Positions 11,851 through 51,108 of a stretch of DNA of 64,000 bases are shown one piece after another. The position numbers were made by a program, and so were the translations under genes. Source of the DNA: an uncultured Acidimicrobiia bacterium (GTDB lineage: Bacteria; Actinomycetota; Acidimicrobiia; Acidimicrobiales; AC-14); contig CAWIIV010000024.1 of NCBI GenBank assembly GCA_963836205.1, positions 32,001 through 96,000 of the forward strand, read 5' to 3'. Below the pieces are notes generated by a model. It ran no database searches. It was not told the origin of the DNA and saw only the letters and a program-made list of their open reading frames with translations. The number at the start of each line of letters is the position of its first letter. Position 1 is the first letter of the stretch.

Positions 11851-12196
11851 GACCGATCGCCACGAGTGCCCCGTCCACGGGGGTGTTCGCGCCAATCGCT
11901 CCCGGTCGCCGGCACGCCCGCCGAGCGATCGCCACGAGTGCCCCGTCCACGGGGGTGTTCGCGCCAATCGCTCTGGGCTGGCCTCGCCGGCTCGCCGGGG
12001 GGGCGGATGCCACTCGGGGTCGCCTGGGGGACCCGCCCTTGGCACTTGGTCGGCTGCCCGGATTCGCCGGAGGAGCGGATGCCGTTTGGGGTCCCGCGGA
12101 GGGTCCACTGGTGCCACCTGCTCCCGACTCCCGGCGTCGGCGGGCGAGCGGATGCCACTTGTGGTCCCATCAGCGGACCACGACTGCCATTTGCTC
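11851..12196. repeat. array of five 51-bp imperfect hairpin repeats (two subfamilies)
   Basis: Units at 11851-11901 and 11923-11973 (nearly identical) and 12001-12051, 12073-12123, 12146-12196 (G.GCGGATGCC...TG.TC); spacers 21-27 bp. Confidence 0.85.
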
Positions 12197-13406
12197 GGGA
12201 CCGGCGGGAGATCGGGCGATGTCGGTGCGGAACTGCATGCCGGGCCAGGAGATCTCGGCCACAGCGGCGTAGGCTCGGTCGCGGGCGGCGGCGATGTCGG
12301 GGCCGATGCCGGTGACGGCCAGCACCCGGCCGCCGGCGGTGGAGAAGTCGGGGCCGACCCCGGCGCAGAAGATCTCGACGTCGGGCAGGGCCGAGGCCAC
12401 CTCGAACCCCTCGATCGGATCACCCGTACGGGGGGCCGTGGGGTAGCCCTCGGCGACCAGGACCACCGTGACGGCGGCGTTGTCGACGAAGGACGGCTCC
12501 GACTCCAGGCGGCCGGCGGCGGCTTCGGCCAGCAGGGTGGCGAGGTCGCAGTCGAGGCGGGGAAGGACCACCTGGGCCTCGGGATCGCCGAAGCGGACGT
12601 TGTACTCCAGCACCTTGAACCCGTCGGCGGTGAGCATCAGTCCCGCGTACAGCACGCCCCGGTAGTCGATGCCCCGGAGGTGGAGGGCGTTCAGCGTGGG
12701 TTCCACCGCCCGCTCCACGATCTCCTCGATCAGATCCTTCCCGACGCCCGGCACGGGGGAGAAGGCGCCCATCCCGCCCGTGTTCGGCCCGGTGTCGCCG
12801 TCGCCCAGGCGCTTGTGGTCCTGGGCCGGCGCCAGCGGCACCGCTCGCCGCCCGTCGCAGAGGCACAGCAGCGAGACCTCGGCACCGACCAGCCCCTCCT
12901 CGATCACCACCCGCCGACCGGCGGCCCCGAAGGCGGCGCCCGACAGCTTGGCGGCCACGTCGGCGATGGCATCCTCCAGCGACTCGGTGACGAGGACGCC
13001 CTTGCCCGCGGCCAGGCCGTCGGTCTTGACCACGTAGGGCGGCGCCAGCGAGCGGAGGAAGACGGCTGCGGCCGACACCTCGGAGAACACCCCGTGGCGG
13101 GCCGTCGGCACCCTGCGCGTCGGCCAGGATCGACTTCATCCACGCCTTGGAGCCCTCCAGGCGGGCGCCGCCGGCCCCCGGTCCGAACACCAGCCGGCCC
13201 GATGCCCGCAGCCGGTCGGCCAACCCGTCCACCAAGGGCACCTCGGGCCCGATCACGAAAAGGTCGGCGTCGATCTCCTCGGGGGGCGTCGCCACCGACC
13301 CGGGAATGCCCGGGTTGCCGGGCGTCACGACGACCGACGCCGTCCGTCCCAGCACCGACGCCAAGGCGTGCTCCCGCCCCCCCGCTCCGACAACGCAGAC
13401 CTTCAC
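12170..13406 (-). CDS. purD: phosphoribosylamine-glycine ligase (apparent +1 frameshift at ~13112)
   Basis: GAGGREHAL, GPEVPL, LEGSK in 12420..13406; KTDGLAAGKGV, QDHKR..GPNTGGMG, EYNVRFGDPE in 12170..13111. Confidence 0.93.
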
Positions 13407-13416
13407 CCGGAACCCG

Positions 13417-14832
<1,416 letters not shown>

Positions 14833-21867: not shown

Positions 21868-24800
21868 TCAGCCGCCGAGGGTGCCGGTCCCCCCGCTCCC
21901 CGGGTTGCCGCCGCCGCCGCCGCCGCCGCCGCTCCCGCCCGCGCCACCGCCACCGCCCCCGCCCCCGCCCCCGCCCCCGCCCCCGCCGCCCCCGCCGCCG
22001 GACGGTCCGCCCGAGCCCCCGCCCGGCTTCGGCCGCCGCTTGCCGCCCCGCTTCGACCTCGGCTTGCGGGTGCCCGACCCCGACCCGGCCTTCGACCCCG
22101 ACCCGGCCTGGCCCGCTCCCGGTGCGGGACGGGTGACGTCGTCGTCGCCTTCGTCGTCGTCGTCCTGGTCCTCGTCATCGCGGCCGGCGCCGACGTCGCC
22201 ACCCCCGGCGTCGATGAGGTTGCCGTAGTGGGCCGCGTTGGCAGCCTGGGTGGCCGCGGGCGACAGGTCGAGCAGCTCGGTGAGCAAGACATTGTCGTCC
22301 GGGCCACCGGCGGCCGGCGTCACCGGGGGCGGTGGGGTCGGGGCCGGGGAGGGCATGGGGTCGACCAGGTCGGCCCACCGGTCGGGGGTGGGCGGTGCCG
22401 GAGTGGTCGGCGGCGGCTCGCTGTCGGGACCGACCATCACGTCCCGGTCCTCCAGCGCCCAGTCGGCGTCGTCGACTGCGCCCGGCCGCCGGGAAGGGGG
22501 AAGGTCCTCGGGGAACAGGTCCCAGAACGACAGCTCCTCCAGGGGGACACGAGGTGCCGGGCGGAGCGGGGGCGCGGCGGGCACCTGGGCCGCCCAGCCC
22601 TCCTCCCCCAGCAGGTCGGGGACGGCGACCTCGGAGCGAGAGTCCGCCGGCGCCTGCGCCGACCGGTCGCCGTCGATGACGCCGGCGAAGGCGGTGTCGT
22701 CGCCGTCGTCCTCCTCGATGACGCGGACGCCTCCCCCCCAGGTCTGCACCGGTGGCGGGGGGACCAGGGGCGCAGGTTGTTCCGGCCCCCATTGGTCGGA
22801 CTCGGCGTTGGCCTTGCGCCGCAGGTAGGCGGTCTGGAGGACTGCGACGAGGAAGAGGGCGGCGGTGGTGGCCACCAGCAGCCGCACCCGCTTGTCGTGG
22901 GTGCCCGACTCGGCGGGGACGGTGGTGACGGCGCCTCCGGTGCCGATCGACGTGGCCGGCGACGCGTCGTCGGCGGCCGAGACGCGGGTGACGAAGCCGT
23001 CGGCGGTGGCGCCCGCCCGGGCCGCCTGGAGCGGCTTGGCCGTCGGGAAGTCGGCCGAGCTGGTGGTGCCGACCACCACTGGCGTGGCCGCCCCCGGCCC
23101 CACGGCGACGCCCGCGGCCTGGTCGTCCTCCCGCCCGCCGAGGTAGGTGGACGACACCAGGGTCGCCCCCGCCGGGGCCAGGGTGGACATGAAGGCGTCG
23201 GTGGCGCCTCCGCCCTTCACCCCCTGGAGGGGCTTGGCCGTCGGGAAGTTGGTCGACCCGGTGACGCCCACCACGGTGACGCCGCCCCCGCCGTCGACCA
23301 GGATGCCCGTGCCCGCGTCGGCACCGCCCCCGCCCAGGTAGGTGGAGAAGACGAGGTCGGACCCCGCCGGGTTCACCTTGGTGACGAAGGCGTCGGTGTC
23401 GCTGTCCTTGCGCTCCTGGAGGGCGCCCTTGATGGGGAAGTTGGGGGAGTTGGTGGTGCCGGTGACGTAGGCCGCGCCCTCGATGTCGACCGCGATCCCG
23501 GCGCCCTGGTCGGTGTCGCTGCCGCCCAGGAACGTGGAGTAGACGAGGTTGTTGCCTGCCGGTCCGAACTTCGACACGAAGGCGTCGGAGAAGCTCCCGG
23601 ACACCCCGCTGGCCGAGCCACCGGCGCCCGCCTGGAGGGGCCGGGCGGTGGGGAAGCCGGGCGACCGGGTGTCGCCGGTGACGTAGGCGTTGCCGGTGGC
23701 GTCGACGGCCACGTCGAGGCCGCGGTCGTCGTTGTCGCCCCCCAGGCGGGTGGAGAAGACGAAGGCGTTGCCCTCCACCGACAGCTTGGTGACGAAGGCG
23801 TCGACGTCGTCGACCCGGGGGGTGGTCTGCTGGAGCGGGTTGGCGGTGGGGAACTCCACCGAGTTGGTCGAGCCGGTGACGAACGCCTCGCCGGCCGCGT
23901 TCACCGCCACCGCCCGGGCGGCCTCGGTCTGCGTCCCCCCCACGAAGGTCGACCAGGCCAGGCCCGACCCGGCGGGGTTGAGCTTGGTGACGAAGGCGTC
24001 GCTGGGCCCGCCGCCGAAGTTCTCCTGGGCCACCCCCGCCGTTTTGGGGAAGTTGTCGGACTCGGTGACCCCGGTGACGTAGACGGTGCCGTCGGCGGCG
24101 ACCGCCACCCCTCCGGCCGCGTCCCGGTTGGTGCCGCCCAGGTAGGTGGCGTAGATGAGGGTCGTGCCCTCGGCGTTGAGCTTGGCCACGAAGGCGTCGG
24201 ACCGGCCCGCCGAGCCGTCGCCGTTGAGGGCGCTCTGGAAGGGGTTGGTGGCCCGGAAGTCGGCCGACTCGGTGGACCCGGCGATGTAGACGTTGCCCCC
24301 GCCGTCGACGTCGACCGAGGCCGCGTTGTCGATCCCGCTGCCGCCGAGGTAGCTCGACGTCACCAGGGTGGGGTCGATCACCAGCGGCCGGGAGCGGTCG
24401 TAGTCGCCCACGGTGAAGCCGACGTGGCCGCCGCCGAGGAGGCGGAAGGCGCCGTCCACCGACCGCCGGTCGCCGTCGACGTCCTGGAAGAGCACGGGGC
24501 GCGACAGGCGGGCGCCGCCCACGACGAGGTCGCCGGTCGGAGGGGTCGACGGTGGGCTCGGCCCCGAACTCGACGGCGATGGCGGACGGGTCGGCGCCGG
24601 GGGCGACCACGAAGTCGTGGCGCAGGCGGCGCTGGTCGCCGAGGAAGACGATGTCGACGCCCGGCCACACGTCGGCGTACGACACCCGGGCGAAGGTGGG
24701 GACGCCCGTCTGCCAGGCGGACGGAGTCGGCGCCCGTGAGGTAGTTGGTGCGGCCCGGGAGGGGATCGACGGTGGTGCCGACCGCGGCCGGGTTCGACCC

Positions 24801-25097
24801 CACCAGGCGGAGGCGGAGGATGTCGTCGGTCTCGGGCAGGGTGACGTCGGCTCCGGTGGCGGAGAGGGCGAGCCGGTAGCCGGGGCCGCGGGCCACGTAG
24901 TCGACCCCTGCCTCGGCCTGGCCCACGTTGGGCTCGAACCCGAGGGGAAGCGACGCCAGGGCGTCGAGAACGGCGGCCGCGGCGGGAGCCTCGGCCGGTT
25001 CGGAGGGTCGTGGCCCCGTGAGCCACCCGGGCACTCCCGCGGAAAGGACCAGGAGGACGAGTGACGCGACGAGGACGGCGGCGGGACGCCTGCGCAT
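21868..25097 (-). CDS. SBBP-repeat beta-propeller surface protein with TM helix and long acidic/Pro/Gly cytoplasmic tail (two apparent frameshifts ~24725 and ~24545)
   Basis: Signal peptide MRRRPAAVLV; LPLGFEPNVGQ, VSYADVWPGVD, YDRSRPLVIDP; repeated YSTYLGG/DAFVTKL; TM LLVATTAALFLVAVL. Confidence 0.85.
21907..21999. repeat. GCC/GCCCCC microsatellite encoding poly-Gly
   Basis: gccgccgccg...gcccccgcccccgccccc; GGGGGGGGG in the minus-strand ORF. Confidence 0.8.
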
Positions 25098-25179: not shown

Positions 25180-25691
25180 TCAGCGAGGCGGGTGCTGCTT
25201 GACGATGACGTCGATCCCCGGAATCGGCTCGCTCCCGGCCGTCGCCTCACCGCCACCCGCCGGTTCGCCGCCAGGCGGGGACGGGTCGCCCGGGTCGCCC
25301 GGGTCGCCCGGCATCGGCTCGACCGCCGCCGCCCCGCCGGAGTTCTTTCCGAGGCCGGGGACGGGGTCACCGTCGGCGACCGCCCCCGCCGCCGCGGGAG
25401 CCTCCGGGAGATCGCCACCGGAAGCGTCACCTTCCGGCGGGTCGTCGCCGGTCACCATCGAAATTGCATGCTCGATGTTCGACCGGGTGGTGTCTCCCTC
25501 GTCGGCCACGTCGCCTTCGACGGCCTCGCCACCCGTGACTTCCGGGTCACCGCCCCCGAGGGCCGTCCCGACGCTCTCGATGTTCGACCAGGCGGAGCTG
25601 ACGCGCCGTCGGCGGCATCCGCCCCCTCCGGGGCTTCTTCGTCGCTGGGCAGGGGTTTCTCGCCGATGGGGTGAGAGTACGCCCGTCCCAC
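25180..25691 (-). CDS. acidic, Gly/Pro-rich disordered hypothetical protein (possible frameshift ~25602)
   Basis: 25452..25691 frame (GEKPLPSDEEAPEGADAADG) joins the 25180 frame (SSAWSNIE...TRSNIE...EPIPGIDVIVKQHPPR). Confidence 0.45.
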
Positions 25692-25695
25692 CCGA

Positions 25696-28129
25696 ATGGA
25701 CAGGGGATCGGCGGCGTACCCTCAGGACATCGGCGAGCCCTCGATCGGCTTCGATGACGGCGGTCCGGCGTCGCCCGGGGAGGCTGACCCTTCCGGCGGG
25801 GACAGGTCCGCCGGCACGCTCCGAGCGCCGGCGACGACACGTCCCCGCATCCCTCCGTCGGGCCTGGCCACCGCCCTCGGCTCCCGACCCGCCGCCCCCG
25901 GGCCGGCGTCGCTCGTCGGACTGGAGCACGAGTACGCCCTGACGAGCGGTGGCGAGCGGCTCGATTTCCGGCAGGTGATCCGGGGGCTGGACCTTCCCGG
26001 ACGGCGCCTCGACCCAGGCGACGCCAACGCCTACCGCTGCCGGTCGGGCCTGGTCATCACCTGCGACGACGAGGAGGCCGAGGTCGTCTCCCCCCCGGTG
26101 CCGGTGCGCCCCGGCTTCACCGCCGACATCGCCGACTGGGCCGTGCGAGGGGCCGACGAGCTCCGTCGCGTCCTCCCGGCCGGCGTTGCGGCGCGGGGCT
26201 TCTCCACCCACCTGAGCGCGTCCATGCCTCCTCGACTGGTCGGACCGTTGTGCGCCCTGTTCGCGGAGACGTTCGCACCGGCCCTGATGCTCGTCCTCGA
26301 CCGGGCCGACTCGCACGGCCTGTTCCTGCGGCCCCGACCGGGCCGGGTGGAGCTCTGCGGCGAGTTCGCCACGGGCCCCGGCTGGGCGCGGCCGCCGCCC
26401 TCGTCGCCGGTGGGACCAGGGCGTGCGCCGAGGCCCTGGTGACGCGGGACGGGCATGCGGCCACGACCTGCCGCCCTCGTTGGCGGTCGACGTCCGGCCG
26501 GCCACGGGACGCTTCGGCCTGTTCGTCGGGCGCCGGCTCGCGTTCGGGTTCGATCTCTACGCCGCCGGCCGCCGGGCCCGGCTGCCATTGGAAGGGGGCG
26601 GGGTCATCACCGCTCAGGCCCATCTCGAACGGGCGTGGGAGGCGGCCCGCGCCGCTTTGGGCCCGGCCGCGAGCCCGGACGACCTTGACGCCGGCGATCG
26701 GATGGTGGCGGGGTCCAGCCCCCTCGGGATCGAGACGAGGGGCGACGACGACCGTCACCCCGCACCACCGCCACCCACCTGGTCGCCATTCGGCGAGATC
26801 CTCCGGGATCGCGGCCAGGCGGGCGTCGGGGTCGCGGCCGTGGCCGCCACCTGGGACTTCACCGTCTTCCGACTCGACCACGCCCGGCGAACGGCCTACG
26901 CGTGTGTCCCCACGCCCTGGCTGGAGCGGTTCTTGCACGGCCTGGACGGCGGCGCCCTCGACGGACTTCTCGCCGACTTCCTCGGTGGCGGATCGTCGGG
27001 AAGGGTGCTGCGCGTGCACGACCAGACCCGGGAGCCCGGTCTGTGGGACGACGCCGTCATCGGCCCCGACCTCCTCCCCGACGAGCGGACGGCGGACGAA
27101 GGCGTGCCTCGGGGTTCGTCGCCACTGCACGCCCGTCCGGGGAAGCTCGGGCGCGTTCCCGGCCCACCCGCGCCGCTCTTCGCCGAGCCGGCCTCGCGGC
27201 CGCCGCTCGTCCCCGCCGAGTCGGCCTCGGCGGCGCTCGTCGCCGCCGAACCTAAACCGAGGCCTGAGTCACCGCCTGTCGCCGAACCGGCCGGAGCACC
27301 GAAGGCCGGCGAACCCGCCGAGGACTCGATCGTACGCAAAGCGGACACGGTTCCTACGGCTCGTAACGCCCTCCAGGTCCCTTCCGCGGTCGAACGGGCG
27401 CCGTCCCCGGCGGCGCCGGTCCCCGCCGGCGTCCCACCGGTCGAACCCACGCTTCGCCCACGACCCCGAGCCGCACAGGCACGGCCGCGGCGACGGGTCC
27501 GCGTCCTCGTCGCCCTGCTCAGCCTGCTGTTGGGCGGGACTGCGGCCGCGGTTGCGGTGGTGATCGCCGGTGGAGGGGACTCCGGGGTCGACGTCCGCAC
27601 CAGCCCGTCGGTCCCGCCGCCGACCGTGGTCCGGCGGACAACGACCCCTCCCGCCTCGACGACAAGCGCCGATCCGACCTCTACCGCCGCGCCCACGACG
27701 CCGGTGGCCACGGCCGCGCCCACGCTCGTCCCCCGCTCGACGGCGGGCGCCACCGCCGTCCCCGCCACCGACCCCGCCACCACCATCCCGCCGGAGACGA
27801 CCGTACCGCCGACGTCGGAGCCGCCCACGACGGTGTCGACGGTCGTCGTCGACCCCCCGACCGACGTGGTGGTGGCGGTGGTGAAGGGACCGCGCGGGTG
27901 CGCGTTCCAACCGGCCTCGATCACGGTGGTCGTGGGCTCGACCGTGGCCTTCCGGAACGCAACCGACGTCGGCCTGACGATCGTCATCGGCGGGACCACG
28001 ATCTCGCTTGACTCCGGAGGCTCGTCCGGCCCCTATCCGCTCGCGACCGCGGGCACCTCTGAGCCCACCTGCACCCCCGACGACGGCACCTCCCCGGGCG
28101 ACATGACCATCACCGTCACCGGCGGCTGA
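25696..28129 (+). CDS. PafA/Dop-like (glutamate-cysteine ligase fold) domain + Pro-rich linker + TM + Thr-rich stalk + cupredoxin-like domain (apparent frameshifts ~26380 and ~26460)
   Basis: VGLEHEY, NAYRCRSG..TCDDEEAEVVSPP, GFSTHLS, RVELCGE, GRRARLPLEGGGVITAQ; TM VLVALLSLLLGGTAAAVAVVI; FQPASITVVVGSTVAFRN. Confidence 0.55.
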
Positions 28130-28223: not shown

Positions 28224-29570
28224 GTGAGCAGCGCCCTCGCCGTCGTCCCGCCGGCCCGGGGCGGCGTGTTCGTGCTCGGCGAGCGCACCATCGACGTGGA
28301 GCGGGGCCACGCCTCGTTCTCCTACGACCTCGACGGGGAGACGTTTCGGGAGGATCTGCGCCTGCCGCCGGGTGGCGGGGTGGCCGATCCCGGCGCCCTC
28401 GACCTCCTCCTCGACCTCTGCCACGTCGTCATCGGCACCAGCTACTACAAGCTCTCGGCCCCGACCCGCCTCACCAGCCGCCATCCCCTGTCGGCCGACC
28501 TCCTCGAGCTGTGCCGGCGGACCTACGACGACGGCCTGCGCGAGCTGGCCTACACCAACGGGCTGCCGCTGCCCCTCGTCACCGACGTCGACGACGGTGC
28601 GTTCTCCGCCCGCCGCGGCCCGGCGGCGACGACACCGACGACGCCGACGACCTGCGTCCGGCCCCTCGTCCCCGTCGGTGGGGGCAAGGACTCGGCAGCC
28701 GTGCTCGGGCTGCTTCCCGACGCCACCGGGATCTCGGTGTCGGCCACCGGGGTCCACCGGCGGCTGGCCGCAGCCGCCGGCGTCGAGCTGCTCGAAGTCG
28801 TCCGGACGATCGACGAGAAGCTCTCCCGGCTCACGCCGACGGGCTTCAACGGCCACATCCCGATCACGGCCGTCAACTCGGCCGTCAGCAGCCTGGTGGC
28901 CTACCTGTTCGACTTCGACGGCGTCGTCATGGGCAACGAGCGCTCCGCTAGCGAGCCCACCCGCATGGTCGGGACGACTGCCGTCAACCACCAGTACTCC
29001 AAGTCGTTCGAGTTCGAGAAGCTCCTGCACGACGCCATCGCCCCCACCGGCATCACCTACTTCTCCCTCCTGCGCCAGCTCTCCGAGCTGACGATCGCCG
29101 GGCTCGTCGCCCGCGACCTGCGCCTGCGGGGCAGCTTCCTGTCGTGCAACCGGGCCTTCGTGCGGTCCCGCGATCCCGGTGCGCCCCAGGTGTGGTGCCT
29201 CGAATGCCCGAAGTGCCTGTTCACGTTCCTCTGCTTCGCCCCCTTCCTCACCGTGGCCGAGGCGGAGGAGATCTTCGGGGGAAACCCCCTCGGCCGGCTG
29301 GAGCTGCGGGAGTCCTTCCGCGACCTCTGGCGGCCGGAATCCAAGCCGTTCGACTGCGTCGGCGAGCGCACGGAGTCGGCGGTGGCTATGGCCTGGCTCA
29401 GCACGTTCCCCGACTGGAAGGAGATGCCCGTGGTCGCGTCGTTGGCGGTCGACGCCGAGTCGATGGCGGAGGGACTGGGGGCCGACCTGGCCCGCGTCCT
29501 GGCCGTCGGCGGGCCCCATCTGATCCCGCCGGATCTCTTGGCGGTCGTGACCGGGGCGGCGAGCCGATGA
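28224..29570 (+). CDS. murL: UDP-MurNAc-L-Ala-L-Glu epimerase (MurL-like)
   Basis: SYYK, VGGGKDS, NGHIPITA, GNERSA, NHQYSKS, SCN, WCLECPKCLF, KPFDCVG. Confidence 0.85.
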   Translation: MSSALAVVPPARGGVFVLGERTIDVERGHASFSYDLDGETFREDLRLPPGGGVADPGALDLLLDLCHVVIGTSYYKLSAPTRLTSRHPLSADLLELCRRTYDDGLRELAYTNGLPLPLVTDVDDGAFSARRGPAATTPTTPTTCVRPLVPVGGGKDSAAVLGLLPDATGISVSATGVHRRLAAAAGVELLEVVRTIDEKLSRLTPTGFNGHIPITAVNSAVSSLVAYLFDFDGVVMGNERSASEPTRMVGTTAVNHQYSKSFEFEKLLHDAIAPTGITYFSLLRQLSELTIAGLVARDLRLRGSFLSCNRAFVRSRDPGAPQVWCLECPKCLFTFLCFAPFLTVAEAEEIFGGNPLGRLELRESFRDLWRPESKPFDCVGERTESAVAMAWLSTFPDWKEMPVVASLAVDAESMAEGLGADLARVLAVGGPHLIPPDLLAVVTGAASR

Positions 29571-30856
29571 TCCGGGCGGATCTCACCGGCAAGGTCGTTG
29601 CCCTGCTGGGGATGGGCATCGACATGGAGGCGGCGCTGCCCGCGATCGTGGAGGTGGAACCGAGCCTGATCTACGTGGTGGACGCCGACCGGAGCCGGGC
29701 CCGCCAGATCCTGGCCGACGCCGACCTCGTCACCGTCCCCATCCTGGACACGGTGGCCGACCTGCCCGCGGCCGACGTCGCCATCCGGAGCCCGGGCTTC
29801 CCGCTCTACTCGCCCGAGCTCCAGGACCGGGTCAAGGCGGGTCTGGTCACGGTCACCCCCCTCGGCCTGTGGCTGGCGGAACGGGGCCACCGACCGACGG
29901 CGTCCGTCACCGGCACCAAGGGCAAGAGCAGTGCCTCTGTCCTGACGACCCTGGCCCTCGAGCACCTCGGCCGGCCGGCCCTCACCCTCGGCAACATCGG
30001 TGTGCCGCCCTGGACGCACTCCCCGGACGTCGCCCAGACGGTGGTCATCGAGATCTCGAGCTACCAGGCGGCCGACCTCGGCGTGGCGCCGTCGATCGCG
30101 TCCCTCACGTCGATCGGCGAGGATCACGTCGACTGGCACGGCTCCTTCGACCAGTACCTCCGCGACAAGGCCCGGGTCTTCACCGCGCCGGTGCTCGGCG
30201 ACCGGCGCTGGGCGGGGGTGCTCGCCGACGTGATGTTGCCGGAGCCCTTCGCTTCGATCGACTTCCATCGGGTGCCGGCGCCCGAGGGTGGTGGGGTCCG
30301 GGCGAGGAACGCCCATCTGGCGGCGGCGACCGCCCTCGCCCTCGCCCTCAACGCCGACGACGTGGATGTGGCCCAGATCGAGCACGTGGCCGCCTACCTG
30401 CTGAGCGAGTATCCCGAGTTGCCCGGTCGCTTCCGCCCGGTGGAGACGGTCAATTCGGTGGTGTACATCGACGACGCCCTGGCCAGCAACCCCCTCGGGC
30501 TGGCGATCAGCATCGGCGAGGTCGGCTCGGAGCCCCTGACGCTCATCGTCGGCGGCGCCAGCCGGGGCGCGAGCTTCGACCCCGTCTTCTTGTCCATCCA
30601 GGCGCGCACGGGACCCACCAACGTCATCTGCATCGACGACGCCGTCCCCCTCGAACCGGATCTGGCCCGGGCCGGGGCCACGACCTACCGCGCTCCCGAC
30701 CTGGAGAATGCCGTAGGGATGGCGGGCGAGATCACCCCCGCCGGCGGCACGGTCCTCTTCTCGCCGGGGATGCCGACCCCATCCGCCGAGGGCAACTGGG
30801 AGAACCGTTCCACTCGGTTCCACCTCGAAGTCGAATACCTGCGCCAGCGGAGCTGA
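29567..30856 (+). CDS. murD2: MurD-family ligase (MurD2-like, coupled to murL)
   Basis: IRSPG, VTGTKGKSS, GNIG, EISSYQ, DHVDWHGS, YIDDALASNP; ATGA overlap with murL. Confidence 0.8.
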   Translation: MIRADLTGKVVALLGMGIDMEAALPAIVEVEPSLIYVVDADRSRARQILADADLVTVPILDTVADLPAADVAIRSPGFPLYSPELQDRVKAGLVTVTPLGLWLAERGHRPTASVTGTKGKSSASVLTTLALEHLGRPALTLGNIGVPPWTHSPDVAQTVVIEISSYQAADLGVAPSIASLTSIGEDHVDWHGSFDQYLRDKARVFTAPVLGDRRWAGVLADVMLPEPFASIDFHRVPAPEGGGVRARNAHLAAATALALALNADDVDVAQIEHVAAYLLSEYPELPGRFRPVETVNSVVYIDDALASNPLGLAISIGEVGSEPLTLIVGGASRGASFDPVFLSIQARTGPTNVICIDDAVPLEPDLARAGATTYRAPDLENAVGMAGEITPAGGTVLFSPGMPTPSAEGNWENRSTRFHLEVEYLRQRS

Positions 30857-31357: not shown

Positions 31358-31706
31358 TCAGTCCCCGGAGATGGGGTCGATGCCCCTCACCGGGGGCGGG
31401 ACGGTGGCGCTCGGGTCGTCGGGGACCACCTGGAACGGCGGCGTGACCCGCGGCGGCAGGGTGGTGGTGGGCGTTGGCGTCGGGATCGTCGTCGGCAGCG
31501 GCGGTCACGGAGGTCGTCTGCGACCCGGTCGCCGAGGCCTGCCGGGGGGCGACGATCGACGTCGGGGGGGCGGGCCCCGGCCCGGTCCGTTCCCCGGGCT
31601 TGAGGCCGGCCGACACCAGCCCCGCGGCCAGGACGACGGCGATGCAGGCGGCCGACCCCCAGCGGGCGATCGCCGAGCCTTCCAGGGTGTGGGCCAGGGT
31701 GCTCAT
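31358..31706 (-). CDS. small membrane-anchored Pro/Thr-rich protein (apparent frameshift ~31495)
   Basis: ATG overlaps the copCD stop; TM SAACIAVVLAAGLV; C-terminal TTIPTPTPTTTLPP...GIDPISGD in a shifted frame. Confidence 0.45.
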
Positions 31707-33136
31707 GCCGGCGTCGGCTGGGCGGTCAACAGGGCGGAGATCCCGACGACGGCCACCATGCCGGCGACCTCCAGCACGATCCAGGTGGCCACGGGTGAAC
31801 GGGTCGCCACGGGGGTGCGGGCGGCGGTGGCCAACCCGCCCGGGCGAGCATGACCGCCGCCGCTGAGCGCCGGCACCATCCGCTCCCGCACGACCGCCCG
31901 GCTCCGCTGGGCGACGACGAGCACGGCGGCGACGACGGCCGCCTTGAGGACCAGGGTCCGCCCGTACGGGGTCGTCATCAGGTTGACGGGCGAACCGACG
32001 AGATCGAGCGCCATGGCCAGTCCCGAGCTGACCAGGGTGACGACGGCCCCGCCGGCAACGGTGGAGAACCGGGGCAGCAGTTCGTCGAGGGGCCGGGCCC
32101 CCTTCCGGGGCGCCACCACCGCCACCAGCAGGAACAGGCCTCCCAGCCACACGCTCACCGATGCCATGTGGACGAGGCGGGCGGACATCCCGAGCGGCCC
32201 GGCACCCGCGCTGTGGCCCACCGCGCCCAGCGTTTGCAGCACCCCGAGCCCGATGCCGACCCCCGCCATCCGCCAGGCCCACGAGGCCGCCACCCGGGCG
32301 CCGCCGGCCAGCAGTCCCCAGACCAGGGCGCCGGCCACGCCGAGCAGGAGGAGGCGGGTGGCCGCGACCCGGCCGAACCGGAACTTGAGCAGGTCACCGA
32401 CTCCCGCCGGCACGATGCCATCGGTGACGGGCGCCCCGTTCGCCACCGCCAGCTGGGTCACGGCCAGGAGGAGGCCGGCGGTGGCCGCGGCCGCGAGCGC
32501 GACCCAGACGAACGTGCGGGCCCAACGGTCGGAGGTGCCCGCCGGCCACACGACCACCAGGAAGACGACTGCACCCACCGCGGCCGCCACTCCGAGGTCG
32601 AGGGCCATGCGGGCGACGACCTGGGCCACACCGAGCCGGGTGTCGAGGTGCGACTCGGCGATGGGGCCGGAGGCAGTGGCGCCGTCGGCCCGGTGGAGTC
32701 CGGCCTCCCCGAAGTCGAACACGAAGGTCCCGAAGATCACCGACGCGTCCTCGCCTACTGCCCGCCAGCCGACCGAGTACGTCCCCCGACCAACGGCCGG
32801 CACCGGCGCGGCCAAGACCCGCCGGTCACCGCCGGGATGGGTCGGCCGGGGCAGCCCGAACGCCCCGCCGTCGTCGGCCAGCCAGATGGCGCTGCCCTCC
32901 AGCTCCACCGGCTCGCCGAACCGCAGCACGATCCGGTCGAGGACCTCGACCACCTGCCCCGGGCGGGGCTCGCTGGCCACGTCGGTTGTGTGGGCCGAGG
33001 CGGGGGGCGCAACCCCGAGCGACGCCAGCGTCGCCAGCCCCGTGGCCGCGCCGAGGCGGAGCCACGTGCCGGCGGCACGCCTGCACGAGCGTGGGGTCAC
33101 GTGCAGGCGTGCCGCTCGAAGCGACGGCAACCTCAT
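31703..33136 (-). CDS. CopC/CopD copper resistance fusion
   Basis: ASA-HT signal cleavage, IVLRFGEPV, YSVGWRAVGED; multiple TMs with GHS, HMASVSVWLGGL, YGRTLVLK. Confidence 0.85.
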   Translation of the reverse strand: MRLPSLRAARLHVTPRSCRRAAGTWLRLGAATGLATLASLGVAPPASAHTTDVASEPRPGQVVEVLDRIVLRFGEPVELEGSAIWLADDGGAFGLPRPTHPGGDRRVLAAPVPAVGRGTYSVGWRAVGEDASVIFGTFVFDFGEAGLHRADGATASGPIAESHLDTRLGVAQVVARMALDLGVAAAVGAVVFLVVVWPAGTSDRWARTFVWVALAAAATAGLLLAVTQLAVANGAPVTDGIVPAGVGDLLKFRFGRVAATRLLLLGVAGALVWGLLAGGARVAASWAWRMAGVGIGLGVLQTLGAVGHSAGAGPLGMSARLVHMASVSVWLGGLFLLVAVVAPRKGARPLDELLPRFSTVAGGAVVTLVSSGLAMALDLVGSPVNLMTTPYGRTLVLKAAVVAAVLVVAQRSRAVVRERMVPALSGGGHARPGGLATAARTPVATRSPVATWIVLEVAGMVAVVGISALLTAQPTPA

Positions 33137-35253
33137 CAGCAGGGGGGACCGATCGGGTTGCGCTGCTTGCACGTGAGACGGGCCGACCAGGCGGGCGGGA
33201 GCTTCTGGACCCAGCCGTTGTAGACGAGAGGGATGGCGAGCACGCCCTGGCCGCCCATGCCCGCGTACTGCACGACGGCGTCGTCGGCCCGGGTCGCGGG
33301 GGCGGGGTCGAGGACCATCTTGCCGACGATGGCGGCGTCGGAGGCGTCGCCGTCGCCGTTGGGGTCACCGTCGAGCACCATCAGGGTGTTCGAGAACTTG
33401 TTCGACAGGTAGCCGTAGTACCCGCCACCCGCCTTGGCCCCGAAGTTGATGCCGTGGCAGCCGGGGTCGCACGGCAGGCTCTTGATGACCGTGTCGGTGC
33501 CGACATCGACCACCGCGACCGTGCCCGACATGGTGTTGGCGCTCAGCAGGTACTTCCCGTCCGGGCTCACCGGCAGCTGGATGGGGAGCAGCCCGATGTC
33601 GCCGTGGGCGCCGGTGACCAGGTCGTAGTTGGTGTCGAGGCGGATCGTCTTGCGGATCACGGGCACCCCGCCTTCGACGCAGGCGGGCTTGGTCACGTCG
33701 ATCGACACGCACGAGATGCTGTTGGCCAGCAGGTTGGCCACGTAGTACTTCGACGAGTTCGGTGTCATCGAGGACGCGATCGGCAGCCTCGCCAGCCGCG
33801 GTTTCTGGATGATCCGCCCCGAAGGGACGTCCCAGAGGGTGGCCTCGTCGGTGTTGGGGTCGGGCGCCACCATGAGCTGGCCGTCGGCGCTCATCCAGTG
33901 GGCGTGGGGATGGGCCACCGGCTCACCTTCCCGCTGGGCGAGCAGGCGGCGGTCGATCTTGGCCGCGTAGGGGGCGAGCTCGACCACCGCGTTCGCTCCG
34001 TTCAAGGCCACGTGGAGCTGGTCGGTGTCGGTTCGGGTCATCACGTGCGACGGGGCGTTGCCGACCTGCACCCGCCGCAACAGTTGCAGCGTCTCCCGGT
34101 CGAACACGTCGAGGTGATCGCTGAACCACTCCGTCTGGTAGATGAAGCGCTGGTCCTTGTCGGTCCACATGTTGTGGGGGTTGTTCATGTTGATCCCGGG
34201 CAGGGCCACCTTCTTCGACACCGTCCAGTTCTCGACGTCCACCGCCGTCGCCGTGCCCGGCTTGGTCTTGCCCGCCGTCTTCTCGAACTGGGTGTCGATC
34301 CACACCTCGCCCACGCCGGGGATCGCCGGCTTCTGGTTGGCGGGGGGCAGGACCTTGGGCTCCTTGAAGTACTTCTGGAAGAAGCCGTCGAGGGTCGGGA
34401 GCAGCGACGGCGTGCCGTTGGCCTTGTAGGTGAGGATCGGGGCCGCCGGGTACGACGGGTCCCACGTGACCGGGGCGGTGGCGCTGAACGTCTGCCAGTT
34501 GGACGGGACGGTGGCAGTGAAGAAGGTCCGCACCAGCCGGAAGATGATGTCGGAGAACGTCGGGACGACGGTGGCCCCGTCGTACATGTTGATGATCGAC
34601 TGCTTCCCGAAGTCGAGCCCGACGGAGAGGGGGTCGTCGACCACGGCCGCCCCCAGCATGTAGGGGTGGATCTTGCAGGTGAAGGCGTAGAGGCCGGGCT
34701 CGGTGAACTCGTACTCCCTCGTCCCGACGAAGCCCGCCGTCTGGTCCATGATCGGCGCCCCCACCGGCCGGATCAGCGACGTGACCGAGTGGTTGGTGTC
34801 CGCCCCCGTCTCGGGGCCGACGATGAACGTGGCCTTGGTCTGGATGCCCGGCAGCTTGAGGACGGGGGCCAGCGACTTCCCGCCGAACAGGGTGAGGCCG
34901 GTGTCGAACCACGAGCCGGGTTCGTCGGTGATCTTGAACGTGGGGCTGAACAGGTTGATCGGCAGCGTGCCGAGCAGCTGGCTCAGCCCGTTCGTCCCGC
35001 CCTGGCCCTTGAGCAGGTCGAGCTTGTTCAGGTCGAGGCCGACCGGGAGAAGGCCGAGCAGGCTGGCCAGGTCGGCGGAGGTCGGCAGCTTGGGCAGGTC
35101 GATCTCGCCCAGCGGCACCCCCGGGATGACGCTCTGCTGGGCCCGGGCCTCCTTCGCCGTCGGGAGCAGCAGCAGGACTGAGGCCATGGCGAGCAGGACG
35201 ATGCCGGCCTTGCGCCCGGCCGTCAGGGGTCGGTGGGTTCGCGTCAGGTTCAT
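33136..35253 (-). CDS. secreted cupredoxin + His-rich YVTN-like beta-propeller protein
   Basis: Signal peptide; NHSV...FTCKIHPYM type-1 Cu motif; propeller with NNPHNMW, APSHV, HPHAHW, CHG. Confidence 0.75.
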   Translation of the reverse strand: MNLTRTHRPLTAGRKAGIVLLAMASVLLLLPTAKEARAQQSVIPGVPLGEIDLPKLPTSADLASLLGLLPVGLDLNKLDLLKGQGGTNGLSQLLGTLPINLFSPTFKITDEPGSWFDTGLTLFGGKSLAPVLKLPGIQTKATFIVGPETGADTNHSVTSLIRPVGAPIMDQTAGFVGTREYEFTEPGLYAFTCKIHPYMLGAAVVDDPLSVGLDFGKQSIINMYDGATVVPTFSDIIFRLVRTFFTATVPSNWQTFSATAPVTWDPSYPAAPILTYKANGTPSLLPTLDGFFQKYFKEPKVLPPANQKPAIPGVGEVWIDTQFEKTAGKTKPGTATAVDVENWTVSKKVALPGINMNNPHNMWTDKDQRFIYQTEWFSDHLDVFDRETLQLLRRVQVGNAPSHVMTRTDTDQLHVALNGANAVVELAPYAAKIDRRLLAQREGEPVAHPHAHWMSADGQLMVAPDPNTDEATLWDVPSGRIIQKPRLARLPIASSMTPNSSKYYVANLLANSISCVSIDVTKPACVEGGVPVIRKTIRLDTNYDLVTGAHGDIGLLPIQLPVSPDGKYLLSANTMSGTVAVVDVGTDTVIKSLPCDPGCHGINFGAKAGGGYYGYLSNKFSNTLMVLDGDPNGDGDASDAAIVGKMVLDPAPATRADDAVVQYAGMGGQGVLAIPLVYNGWVQKLPPAWSARLTCKQRNPIGPPC

Positions 35254-35294: not shown

Positions 35295-36989
35295 TCAAAA
35301 CTTGAAGACGACGAAGAACCCAACTGCGCCGGCCACCAGCACCAGCCCGGCGATGATCCCCACCACCAACCACCACGTGGATGCCGCGCTCCCGCCCGAG
35401 CCGCCGCCCAGCCCGAGGGCCGACTCGCCGTGGCCCGACGCCGAGACGTCGACGATCGTGACCATGCCGGTCATGCCAGTGGAGTCCGCCCCCGCGGCGG
35501 CGCCGCTCATGCTGTGGGTGTCGCCGTCCTTGTGGGAGTGCCCGAAGATGTGGCAGTGGAGCAGCCACTTTCCCGGGTTGGTGAAGGTGGCGATCAGGTC
35601 GAGGGTCTGGCCCGGCGAGATCGTCACCGTGTCCATCCGATCCGGCTCCTTGATGGGGATGCCGTCCTGCGCCACCACCTCGAACGGCGTTCCGTGCAGG
35701 TGGACGGCATGCACCTGGTCGCCGGTGTCGACCACCCGGATACGGATCTTCTGGCCCACCTCCGCCTTCAGCGTCGTCGTCGCGGGGTAGGACTTGCCGT
35801 TGAACGTGAAGCCGAGGTCGGTGTCGCCGATCATCACCCGGTAGTCGTGGTCGGCCTTGAAGTCGCCCTTCTTCGGCACCACCTCGAACATCCCGTAGAG
35901 GCCCTTGCCGATGTGCCGGCCCGACGAGTGGGTGTGGTACCAGTGGGTCCCGGTGGCGACGGCGGTGAACTCGTAGGTGTAGGTCTCCCCGGGCATGATC
36001 GCGGGCTGGGTGATGCCCGGCACCCCGTCCTGGGAGTTGGGTAGCACCATCCCGTGCCAGTGGACCCCGGTGTCGAAGGGCAGGTCGTTCTTGACGACCA
36101 TCCGCACCTTGTCGCCCTCGTCCACCCGGAGGACGGGTCCCGGGATCACCCCGTTGAAGGCGTAGGCCGGCTTCACCACCCCCGGCTCGACCTCCTGCAT
36201 CACCTCCACCATGGCGAGGTCGAAGACTTTGACGTCGCCGACGGTCTGGAACGGGGCGAGGGTCGTCCCGTCGCCGAGGGGTTTGCCGGCCGACTCGAGC
36301 GACGACGACGTCGGGGCCGCGGTGGGGGCCGCGACCGTCGTGGGGGGCACCGACGAGGGGGCCGTGGTGGTCGCGGTCTGGCGGGTGGTGGTGGCAGCCG
36401 GCCGGGGGGCCGAGGGGACGGTCGTGGGCACCACCACCACCTGGGGGAGCGGTTCGCCGTCGAGGCCGAGGGCGAGCACGAGGGGGACTCCCCCGGAGGC
36501 GGCCGCCGGTGCCGCCGGTGCCGGGCTGGCGGCCACGGCTGCGGGGGTGACCGGCGCCGCGGGGGCGGCCGGGGCCGGCGCCGGGCTGGCCGGGAGGAGG
36601 GGGTCGGGCGCGGCCGCCGCCGGCGCCGCGGGGGCGGGTGCGCCGCCTCCGCCGTCCACCACCACCGAGCCGGTCATGAACGTGTGAAGGCGGCAGATGT
36701 AGTTGAACACCCCGGCCTCGCCGAAGGTGAAGGAGTAGGAACCGCCCTGGGAGAACTCGGGCGACGCCATCGGGCCGCCGTGGACGGTGTGGCGGTCGGC
36801 GTCGAAGTTCGTCCACGTGACCGAGTCGCCCACGCCGACGTGGACCTCGGACGGAAGGAACGCCGACCCCCGGATGTCGACGCTCGCCGACGCCGCCGCC
36901 GCCCGACCCACGAACGGCGCCATGCTGGCGATGACCGCGACTGCCGCGGCTGCCGCTGCCGCCCGCCTGCCCCCGATGACCCCGACCAT
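35295..36989 (-). CDS. membrane-anchored two-domain multicopper oxidase with N-terminal cupredoxin
   Basis: HTV..YICRLHTFM; HWHG, WYHTH, HAVHLHG, HCHIFGH; C-terminal TM. Confidence 0.88.
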   Translation of the reverse strand: MVGVIGGRRAAAAAAAVAVIASMAPFVGRAAAASASVDIRGSAFLPSEVHVGVGDSVTWTNFDADRHTVHGGPMASPEFSQGGSYSFTFGEAGVFNYICRLHTFMTGSVVVDGGGGAPAPAAPAAAAPDPLLPASPAPAPAAPAAPVTPAAVAASPAPAAPAAASGGVPLVLALGLDGEPLPQVVVVPTTVPSAPRPAATTTRQTATTTAPSSVPPTTVAAPTAAPTSSSLESAGKPLGDGTTLAPFQTVGDVKVFDLAMVEVMQEVEPGVVKPAYAFNGVIPGPVLRVDEGDKVRMVVKNDLPFDTGVHWHGMVLPNSQDGVPGITQPAIMPGETYTYEFTAVATGTHWYHTHSSGRHIGKGLYGMFEVVPKKGDFKADHDYRVMIGDTDLGFTFNGKSYPATTTLKAEVGQKIRIRVVDTGDQVHAVHLHGTPFEVVAQDGIPIKEPDRMDTVTISPGQTLDLIATFTNPGKWLLHCHIFGHSHKDGDTHSMSGAAAGADSTGMTGMVTIVDVSASGHGESALGLGGGSGGSAASTWWLVVGIIAGLVLVAGAVGFFVVFKF

Positions 36990-50247: not shown

Positions 50248-51108
50248 TTAGTCCTGCTCCCGCAGGAAGCGTTCGAGCTCGTCGGCGAGGGCGTCGCCCG
50301 ACATCAGCTCCAGGCGGCCGCTCTCATCGGGGTCGTCGGCGTTGTCCTCCAGGCGGCGGACGTAGGCGGCCACGTCGTCGTCGCTGTCGACGACCTCGCT
50401 CACCTGGCGCTCGTAGTCGGCGGCCATCACCTGGAGGTCGGCGGTGAACAGCGACGTCGACAGCAGGCGGGCGGCCCGTTCGACCAGGGCCAGCGACGCC
50501 TTGGGGGACGGGGTGGCGGCCACGTAGTGGGGCACCGCCGCCCACAGCGACGCCGACGGGATCTCGGCCCGGCTGAAGGCCTCGTGCAGGACGCCCACGA
50601 TGCCGGTGGGGCCCTCGTACGTCGACCGGGTCAGGCCCAGGCGCTGCACCAGCTCGTTGTCGGCGGCGGTGCCCGTCACCCGGACGGGACGGGTGTGGGC
50701 CACGTCGGCCAGCAGCGCGCCCAGGGTGACCACCAGCTCCACGCCCATGGAGGTGGCCACGCCCACCAGCTCCTCGGTGAACGTCCGCCACTTGAGCTGG
50801 GGCTCCGTGCCCAACAGCACGATCACGTCGCGTGACGTGCCTGGCAGCGACGCCGCCGACAGCTCGTTCGACGGCCACGCGATCTCCCGGGCCATGTCGT
50901 CGTTGAGGCGGACGTGGGGCCGGGTCGACGAGAAGTCGAAGAAGTCCTCGGGGTCGATGGTGGCGAACCGCTTGGCCTGCCAGCGGTCGCGCAGGTAGCG
51001 GACGGCGGACGAGGCCGCGTCGCCGGCATCGTTCCATCCCTCGAAGGCGGCCAGCAGCACCGGGCGCCGCAGCTTCGGACGGGACTCCCACAGCAGGTGG
51101 TCCATCAC
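50248..51108 (-). CDS. PAC2 family (proteasome assembly chaperone-like) protein
   Basis: AFEGWNDAGDAA, EPQLKW, LGALLAD..HTRP, YEGPTGI, WAAVPHY. Confidence 0.9.
   Translation of the reverse strand: MMDHLLWESRPKLRRPVLLAAFEGWNDAGDAASSAVRYLRDRWQAKRFATIDPEDFFDFSSTRPHVRLNDDMAREIAWPSNELSAASLPGTSRDVIVLLGTEPQLKWRTFTEELVGVATSMGVELVVTLGALLADVAHTRPVRVTGTAADNELVQRLGLTRSTYEGPTGIVGVLHEAFSRAEIPSASLWAAVPHYVAATPSPKASLALVERAARLLSTSLFTADLQVMAADYERQVSEVVDSDDDVAAYVRRLEDNADDPDESGRLELMSGDALADELERFLREQD

Follow-up and report, generated by a model that had tools for sequence, protein, structure and literature searches.

A candidate two-gene module in uncultured bacteria: a membrane-anchored relative of PafA and Dop and its conserved disordered partner

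The subject of this report is a gene at 25696-28129 (forward strand) of a 64,000-nucleotide stretch of DNA from an uncultured Acidimicrobiia bacterium (assembly GCA_963836205.1, contig CAWIIV010000024.1, positions 32,001 to 96,000; hereafter the window), together with the small gene that lies beside it. We read the two as a module that combines a new family of membrane-anchored, PafA/Dop-like ligases with a conserved disordered partner protein beginning Met-Gly-Glu-Lys (M-G-E-K), acting by the mechanism proposed below, and put the probability of this reading at roughly 0.55. To our knowledge, pupylation is the sole bacterial protein-tagging system built on the glutamine-synthetase fold, and the usual view makes it a proteasome-linked speciality of actinobacteria. 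A large unnamed family that shares the fold and the active-site signature, carries a membrane anchor and has a small protein of its own therefore suggests that this chemistry has been used at least once more; if so, it has apparently been reused in different phyla and for a different purpose. The enzyme domain and the M-G-E-K protein form a directly testable pair, and the module supplies a defined motif with which to ask how proteins at membranes are acted upon by carboxylate-amine ligases.

A preliminary description, made from the sequence alone, had taken the larger gene for a PafA/Dop protein of about 800 amino acids (aa) built like a receptor and interrupted by two frameshifts, at ~26380 and ~26460. 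In the window, whose G+C content is ~74%, the gene is seen as two overlapping open reading frames (ORFs). Comparison by tblastn with two intact homologues, P0002 (672 aa) and P0003 (724 aa; 65% identity with the window across the searched region), shows one gene in three frames: a first piece in frame 1 that ends at 26376 (...CGEFATG), a second in frame 3 at 26376-26453 (PRLGAAAALVAGGTRACAEAL...) and a third in frame 2 that runs from 26468 (LPPSLAVDVRPATGRFG...) to 28126, with the stop codon at 28127-28129. Both breaks thus lie where they had been expected, and DNA alignment with the three closest loci (L001-L003) places them in the stretches listed below. The features of the two genes are as follows.

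25180..25667, reverse strand: small partner gene, with apparent start codon ATC at 25667, then G-E-K-P-L-P-S-D-E-E
25696-26442, forward strand: ORF in frame 1, 248 aa, overlapping the next
26423-28129, forward strand: ORF in frame 2, 568 aa
25696..26376, forward strand: first segment of the enzyme gene, frame 1, containing GLEHE, T-C-D, E, H and RPRPGRVE
25918-25932, forward strand: GLEHE motif (like the next three motifs, invariant in the family or nearly so)
26059-26067, forward strand: T-C-D motif, with the E codon at 26080-26082
26209-26211, forward strand: H codon of the STH motif
26329-26352, forward strand: RPRPGRVE motif
26372..26380, forward strand: first frameshift, -1, frame 1 to frame 3, a single base absent from the G/C run ACGGGCCCCGG
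26376..26453, forward strand: middle segment of the enzyme gene, frame 3, PRLGAAAALVAGGTRACAEALVTRDG
26441..26467, forward strand: second frameshift, net -1, frame 3 to frame 2, in a length-variable stretch where the base is not assignable
26468..27130, forward strand: remainder of the enzyme domain, frame 2, LPPSLAVDVRPATGR, then ATWDFTVF, up to LLPDERT
27131..27487, forward strand: Pro/Ala-rich linker (29 P and 26 A in 119 residues), modelled as disordered, ending RPRRRVR
27503..27571, forward strand: predicted single transmembrane helix, VLVALLSLLLGGTAAAVAVVIAG, preceded by RPRRRVR
27572..27841, forward strand: Thr/Pro stalk, predicted to be extracytoplasmic (24 T and 19 P in 90 residues)
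27842..28129, forward strand: predicted beta-sandwich domain of 95 aa, cupredoxin-like, with two conserved Cys (coding to 28126, stop codon included)

Read through both breaks from the ATG at 25696, the product is about 806-810 aa long, close to the length first proposed, and once repaired it matches intact homologues of 670-805 aa. GC content at third codon positions (GC3) is high in the expected frame on either side of both breaks. A real gene, broken by two -1 frame changes, is thus confirmed at 25696-28129. Its start codon is uncertain because GGG stands at 25798-25800 where the closest relatives have their GTG start; upstream of this point the reading frame remains open as far as the ATG at 25696, only 28 nucleotides (nt) from the apparent ATC start of the divergent partner gene.

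The enzyme belongs to a sizeable family. Besides the window's own ORF, 30 relatives (374-805 aa) came up in a word-indexed search with the second ORF, all unnamed or 'hypothetical' save for the JGI name 'plastocyanin' on three. Scanning 1.84 billion representatives of clusters at 50% identity with the first ORF, using HMMER, returned 596 clusters with E<=1e-3, of which 260 reach E<=1e-30; the lengths listed run from ~150 to 1040 aa. With a 24-sequence alignment and one genome per species, we found 56 loci, nearly all in metagenome-assembled genomes (MAGs): 18 in Acidimicrobiia and other Actinomycetota, 33 in Chloroflexota, two in Dormibacterota and three in other or unassigned lineages. We found no published description of the enzyme family or of the M-G-E-K partner in the literature covered, which did not include bioRxiv supplements or a 2009 amidoligase survey that could describe the family.

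The preliminary description had remarked that no pup, arc or prc gene adjoins the enzyme gene, and a Pfam scan of 44 window ORFs likewise showed none, yet a conserved small disordered partner is present. This M-G-E-K gene, at 25180-25667 on the reverse strand, had been missed, as had a third frameshift inside it. The N-terminal piece of the window partner lies in ORF 25452-25691 (reverse strand) and the remainder in the frame of ORF 25180-26505 (reverse strand), the two being separated by a 1-nt deletion near 25601 (GCG-TCAGC vs TCGATCAGC in the DNA alignment with L001-L003). Two ..SNIE.. motifs occur in the protein, which is acidic and disordered and has the C-terminal sequence ..EPIPGIDVIVKQHPPR.

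Across the related loci, a small ORF beginning with a start codon and G-E-K lies directly upstream of the enzyme gene. Chloroflexota have the form MGEKET, encoded on the same strand as the enzyme, 20-130 nt away, with a GGAGG-like site upstream; Acidimicrobiia have MGEKPL, divergent to the enzyme and with an apparent ATC start in the window and L001-L003; other Actinomycetota have MGEKGN. Using the pattern (ATG/GTG/TTG/ATC)-GGN-GAR-AAR with an ORF of at least 50 aa, we counted 48 occurrences within 1 kb upstream of the enzyme gene (45 of the 56 loci; 105.8 kb searched). Elsewhere, in 1256 kb, there were five, and four of these are further members of the partner family: two more tandem copies in L009, an 804 aa form in L015 whose end lies immediately ahead of the enzyme gene and, in L031, a copy on the downstream side. 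With L015 and L031 counted, the partner adjoins the enzyme in 47 of the 54 loci that have upstream sequence, spanning Acidimicrobiia and other Actinomycetota, Chloroflexota and others; one locus (L004) has an M-G-E-R variant. Independently of the pattern, three neighbour clusters defined by BLAST (c5, c23 and c31) begin M-G-E-K, and a fourth (c24) does likewise from an ATC codon. A small disordered partner is thus conserved across phyla beside the enzyme, and this changes the functional reading of the locus.

The 51 partner proteins collected have a median length of 114 aa (range 51-504, plus the one 804 aa form) and are rich in acidic (D+E 16%) and in G, A, S, P and T residues (50%); none has a hydrophobic segment (0/51), and the protein is taken to be cytoplasmic. 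Their apparent start codons are ATG, GTG or TTG in 46 cases and ATC in five (the window, L001-L003 and one L020 copy). Repeats such as ..TTRSNIK.., ..NLNLSKSNIDR.., ..IAIKEQGV.. and ..PIPGIDVKLGKN.. recur. Ten sampled partners gave no significant Pfam match and an Atlas search with the partner no usable match; those database copies that are clear relatives are all unnamed or 'hypothetical' and lie on enzyme-bearing contigs, and P0005 and P0290 carry NCBI names with consecutive tags (923 and 924). Some loci have two or three M-G-E-K genes in tandem (L008, L009, L011 and L020), and there are long, repeat-rich forms (L015 1661-4073, 804 aa; L007 7814-6250, reverse strand, 521 aa) with ..SPRDAASGLATGRR.., ..GDLDGDG.. 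and ..IAIDEPGV.. motifs.

What kind of enzyme stands beside this protein is indicated by its ~420 aa N-terminal domain. An AlphaFold2 model of P0003 is confident over residues 20-440 (predicted local distance difference test, pLDDT, ~97), the rest comprising a disordered linker, a helix at 516-536 and a beta domain at 637-722; the domain modelled by itself has a pLDDT of 92 and a predicted TM-score (pTM) of 0.91. When this domain-only model was compared with the Protein Data Bank (PDB) using Foldseek, ranks 1-9 were all Dop or PafA chains, among them 5lrt (E 9.2e-7), 7oyh (E 1.0e-6, TMq 0.49, TMt 0.46) and 4bjr (E 1.5e-6). YbdK (1r8g) and the related chain 1tt4 came next (E 3.2e-4, TMt 0.40-0.44), then GmaS and glutamine synthetases (E ~3e-3 to 4e-2). 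The Foldseek probability was 1.00 for 11 ligase-superfamily chains (Dop, PafA, YbdK and 1tt4; E 9e-7 to 3e-4), and the full-length P0003 model gave the same order. TM-scores are highest for the Dop chains (0.45-0.49), whereas the 4bjr chains of PafA reach 0.30-0.35, and the structural alignments to PafA/Dop show ~15% identity. Against Dop chains 456-501 residues long, the Foldseek alignments cover 496-530 columns; residues 346-424 of the model form a beta/alpha subdomain. Judged by its predicted structure, the domain belongs to the carboxylate-amine ligase superfamily with the glutamine-synthetase fold, and Dop and PafA are its closest solved relatives.

Iyer et al. (2008, PMC2588565) define the superfamily by features of its core strands: strand 1 bears a GhExE motif, strands 2 and 3 have acidic residues and strand 4 carries [HD]x[NH]; there is an Arg on strand 5 and another in the loop that precedes it, and strand 6 contributes a polar residue close to the metal and ATP. 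According to Cui et al. (2021, PMC8599861), the Mg ligands of Dop are Glu8, Glu10, Tyr92, Glu99, His155 and His241, with Asp94 at the reaction centre, and the catalytic Asp of PafA and Dop is described as lying in a loop between two cradle strands (PMC8599861, PMC3511204). In an alignment of 126 relatives of the enzyme (P0003 numbering), E45, G84, D90, A94, E95, S136, H138, G174, R178, R180, R183 and E185 are invariant, and G41, E43, D72, D75, R80 and T88, among others, are present in at least 90%. The GhExE signature, as so defined, is reproduced by G41-[LV]-E43-H-E45 in the modelled strand 39-50. T88-C-D90-x4-E95 has a spacing identical to that reported for Tyr92, Asp94 and Glu99 of Dop, and D90 falls in the hairpin between modelled strands 86-90 and 93-97, the site described for the catalytic Asp of PafA and Dop; D90 and E95 lie on or at the ends of these two strands, which are equated with core strands 2 and 3 by order alone. 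H138 is in strand 130-142, whilst R178 and R180 lie in modelled strand 174-180 and R183 and E185 in strand 183-189, their correspondence to the superfamily residues again being one of order. All of the N-terminal motifs that had first prompted the PafA/Dop assignment are present, and the conserved Glu, Asp, His and Arg residues follow in the right order.

A 'Dop-loop' of 40-65 residues is described as conserved before strand beta-2 in Dop and as missing from PafA (PMC8599861). In P0003 the distance from E45 to D90 is only 45 residues, compared with 84 between Glu10 and Asp94 of Dop, so the family has no Dop-loop of the kind described there.

The rest of the protein has the layout expected of it from the start: an enzyme domain on the inner side, a Pro-rich linker, a transmembrane helix, a Thr-rich stalk and a beta domain. 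In the 126 relatives the enzyme domain is followed by exactly one hydrophobic segment in 97, by more than one in two and by none in five, the remaining 22 being too short to judge. The median number of Lys and Arg residues is three in the 15 residues before the transmembrane segment and zero in the 15 after it, and because of this the enzyme domain is placed in the cytoplasm. The ectodomain varies: in nine of the 34 long members it matches a Pfam family at E<=1e-3 (TIG, fn3, PKD, Big_1, He_PIG, Flg_new_2 or VHL-beta). The beta domain of the window had been called cupredoxin-like with an incomplete copper motif, and this holds, the resemblance to plastocyanin being weak in the window's clade: the plastocyanin/Copper-bind model (PF00127) reaches 13.3 bits, short of its 21.2-bit cut-off (E 0.12), in one of 24 members, and of the copper ligands His-Cys-His-Met only the Cys is kept in alignment with plastocyanin 1iuz. 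The enzyme is thus predicted to be a bitopic protein with a cytoplasmic N-terminal domain and a small extracytoplasmic beta-sandwich.

From these features we infer the following mechanism. At the inner face of the membrane the enzyme would bind ATP and Mg through the GhExE glutamates, H138 and E185 (P0003 numbering) and phosphorylate a carboxylate; with D90 acting as general base, this carboxylate would then be linked to an amine, forming an amide or isopeptide bond. As substrate or as a transferable tag, the M-G-E-K protein would react through the amine of its N-terminal Gly, through its Glu or through its Lys, and/or through the Lys-bearing repeat motifs, so that the overall reaction would amount to conjugation or cross-linking of a pupylation-like kind; the probable role of the ectodomain is to localise or regulate the enzyme. 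A more specific version can be offered only tentatively, and we think it the less probable by some way: that this is a second pupylation-type system, independent of the proteasome, in which a membrane-bound PafA/Dop relative ligates its disordered, repeat-rich partner through the invariant N-terminal Gly-Glu-Lys, in place of a C-terminal Glu, to lysines in itself or in other proteins on the cytoplasmic side of the membrane; such a system would occur in uncultured Acidimicrobiia, Chloroflexota and Dormibacterota.

Several observations weigh against the proposal of a PafA/Dop-like ligase with a protein partner. The three window ORF pieces have no Pfam match at E<=1, PF03136 included, and no ligase family is found at E<=10 in 24 family members (Pup_ligase PF03136, 0/24). 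NCBIfam gave no match to the enzyme domain, and PDB profile searches with full-length and domain-only alignments returned no Dop, PafA or YbdK at E<=10. Comparing the domain with 18 close YbdK relatives using hhalign gave a probability of 0.16% and an E value of 0.36 against a shallow YbdK alignment (Neff ~2), with the GhExE strand alone aligned. All TM-scores are below 0.5, with root-mean-square deviations of 7.5-10 A, and the enzyme is therefore a distant relative of PafA and Dop, not a family member. The original assignment accordingly stands in part: the glutamine-synthetase-like fold and Dop and PafA as best solved matches are upheld by Foldseek, whereas membership of the PafA/Dop family is not, there being no PF03136 match, TM-scores below 0.5 and, on strand 4, an H-x-S motif (H138-L-S140) in place of [HQ]-x-[NH]. 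The residue equivalences with Dop and PafA rest on motif order and spacing.

The same is true of points concerning the partner. It is undetectable in six or seven of the 54 loci, and none of the 51 partners ends in a Pup-like G[EQ]. The invariance of G-E-K in these 51 ORFs is set by the search pattern, and it is therefore the enrichment control that provides independent evidence. Complex prediction, in which a 126-row alignment represented the enzyme domain and a 5-row one the partner from L001, scored 0.42 (runs 0.01, 0.47 and 0.42) against 0.00 for the best of three controls, with a partner pLDDT of at least 31 and at least 13% of contacts common to the runs. The mark used for this score is reached by 58 of 80 solved complexes and two of 110 mismatched pairs, those at scores of <=0.60 comprising seven of the 80 solved complexes and both mismatches; the verdict here was 'weak support', one of the three runs having scored 0.01. 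Finally, all family members come from uncultured genomes, and both genes of the module are broken in the window itself.

This last point raises the alternative that the two window genes are genuine, recently inactivated pseudogenes, the module having been lost with both partners decaying together, and we give this somewhat less than an even chance. Three 1-nt frame errors fall within ~0.9 kb (~25601, 26372-26380 and 26441-26467), the deletion at 25601 is outside any homopolymer and the relatives' GTG start has become GGG at 25798-25800. The other window ORFs look sound: 35 of the 44 scanned have a Pfam match, and only purD has a split domain architecture. That exception, however, cuts the other way. 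purD (12170-13421, reverse strand) is a housekeeping gene in an otherwise intact pur cluster, with GARS_N in the frame of ORF 12420-13421 and GARS_A and GARS_C in that of ORF 12170-13135; its break, at 13110-13135 (reverse strand), is in a G run (CAGGGTGCCG), which suggests assembly indel errors, and the first frameshift of the enzyme gene is likewise in a G/C run and fits the same explanation. The GC3 coding signal and ~73-80% identity to intact homologues have been kept in the window genes. Moreover, in-frame stops occur within the matched stretch in three of 41 related loci checked (one in L040, four in L054 and five in L055), so that copies elsewhere are also broken or mis-assembled. An automated scan of the window for frameshift candidates was not discriminating, flagging normal gene junctions and missing known cases. 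The three frame errors in the window are either assembly errors or a recent joint inactivation.

If the enzyme is active in its relatives, it might nevertheless be a small-molecule gamma-glutamyl-type ligase like GCS2/YbdK, producing a metabolite at the membrane, with the M-G-E-K protein as a regulator or otherwise linked. YbdK 1r8g and 1tt4 are significant fold matches at the E values given above, families of the superfamily are described as acting mostly on small molecules (PMC2588565) and, in the Atlas, where the nearest named clusters are GCS2, Pup_ligase and COOH-NH2_lig (0.84-0.85; leads only), GCS2 ranks as high as Pup_ligase. We consider this unlikely: both fold searches place Dop and PafA above YbdK, the enzyme has the Dop-like T-x-D-x4-E spacing and a conserved small disordered ORF beside the ligase gene, which by the account of Iyer et al. 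(PMC2588565) separates protein-conjugating from metabolite ligases, is found here.

A little less probable again is that the enzyme acts as Dop does, serving not as a ligase but as an amidase or isopeptidase, assisted by ATP/phosphate, by which the partner is deamidated or de-conjugated. Dop chains are the top matches and have the highest TM-scores, and many partner repeats contain an invariant Asn (..SNI..) that could be a deamidation site, but the 45 residues between E45 and D90 leave no room for a Dop-loop of the described length (PMC8599861); ligase and amidase activities are, in any case, not separable from sequence alone. That the fold likeness misleads, the domain being a non-enzymatic scaffold or sensor and its association with the small ORF having no functional meaning, would accord with TM-scores below 0.5 and the want of a profile match to any ligase family but is very improbable given twelve invariant, mostly charged or polar residues on signature positions in 126 diverse relatives, a Foldseek probability of 1.00 for 11 superfamily chains and an enriched adjacency (48 in 105.8 kb vs one unrelated occurrence in 1256 kb). 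The reading of a membrane-anchored ligase with a protein partner remains the one we favour.

The wider neighbourhood of the enzyme gene varies between genomes. After clustering 570 neighbour ORFs, no family of neighbours of at least 90 aa was common to more than eight of the 56 loci; the recurrent neighbours are housekeeping genes (PanD/PanB/PanC, UvrB, PPK2, CoA-transferase and enoyl-CoA hydratase) with no proteasome or ARC genes among them, and no pafA or dop gene was recognised by motif in the fetched loci. Directly downstream in the window, 28224-29570 (forward strand) matches the MurL epimerase model NF041275 (E 1.6e-79, 267 bits, under the 700-bit cut-off) and 29567-30856 (forward strand) matches MurD (TIGR01087, E 3e-51, below cut-off). 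By sequence, the genes at 28224-30856 look like a MurD2/MurL-type pair making D-Glu for peptidoglycan precursors. Only L002 and L003 have MurL and MurD2 next to the enzyme gene, L002 with the order changed, and a link of the enzyme to peptidoglycan was rejected because these neighbours are not widely shared and the recurrent ones are housekeeping genes.

Upstream, the divergent neighbour at 21868-25026 (reverse strand) encodes a protein of 1052 aa with SBBP beta-propeller repeats, whose long C-terminus is Gly-rich and of low complexity; synteny of ClpB and this propeller gene with the enzyme gene is confined to L001-L003. Also close by is a copper cluster, comprising a CopC/CopD fusion (31703-33172, reverse strand) and a multicopper oxidase with a genuine cupredoxin domain (35295-36989, reverse strand); the cluster has no conserved link to the enzyme gene, in whose own cupredoxin-like domain the copper ligands are missing. 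Further away, 50248-51108 (reverse strand) encodes a PAC2-family protein (PF09754, E 1e-60). PAC2 proteins are described as proteasome chaperones often encoded near actinobacterial Pup-proteasome genes (PMC2588565); the scanned ORFs of the window showed neither a proteasome gene nor one for a Pup ligase.

How, then, does the module compare with known systems? With PafA and Dop (Pup_ligase, PF03136), which are its best solved structural matches, the enzyme shares the GhExE strand, a conserved His, an Arg cluster and the x-D-x4-E spacing of the catalytic loop, with an aromatic residue or Thr two positions earlier, and its gene likewise lies beside that of a small, acidic, intrinsically disordered protein. 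It differs in having no Pfam or HMM match, in the H-x-S on strand 4, in the missing Dop-loop and in E185, which is put on strand 6 by order and is a Glu as in glutamine synthetase and GCS, not a His or Gln. Moreover, it has a C-terminal transmembrane anchor and an ectodomain, its partner is conserved at the N-terminus (M-G-E-K), not at a C-terminal G[EQ], and the genes are found, with no proteasome, arc or pup genes near them, in MAGs of Acidimicrobiia, Chloroflexota and Dormibacterota. YbdK/GCS2 (PF04107; 1r8g and 1tt4) has the same fold, a catalytic domain of similar size and the GhExE motif, but the hhalign comparison was not significant; YbdK proteins are soluble, ligate small molecules and have no conserved small-protein partner.

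A precedent is offered by the membrane-inserted Pup ligases predicted in Plesiocystis and Rhodopirellula (Iyer, Burroughs and Aravind 2008, PMC2588565). As they are described there, these too are PafA-type enzymes at the cytoplasmic face of the membrane, unlinked from proteasome genes; unlike the present family, they are true PafA members with canonical Pup genes and have four transmembrane segments after core strand 4, in place of a single C-terminal anchor and ectodomain. Pup itself is given as 50-90 aa long with a conserved C-terminal G[EQ] (PMC2588565). Like Pup, the M-G-E-K protein is small, acidic, disordered and encoded beside the ligase gene, but it is longer, at a median of 114 aa, with its conservation at the N-terminus and with arrays of short motifs. 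A canonical Pup was rejected as the partner, no adjacent small ORF having the G[EQ] ending.

The layout of the enzyme, finally, is that of the bitopic receptor Ser/Thr kinases of the PknB type found in Actinobacteria, in which a cytoplasmic enzyme is joined by a linker and one transmembrane helix to variable, beta-rich ectodomains. The fold and chemistry of these kinases are unrelated to those proposed here, and it is purely by analogy that one might imagine the ectodomain of the new family sensing a ligand.

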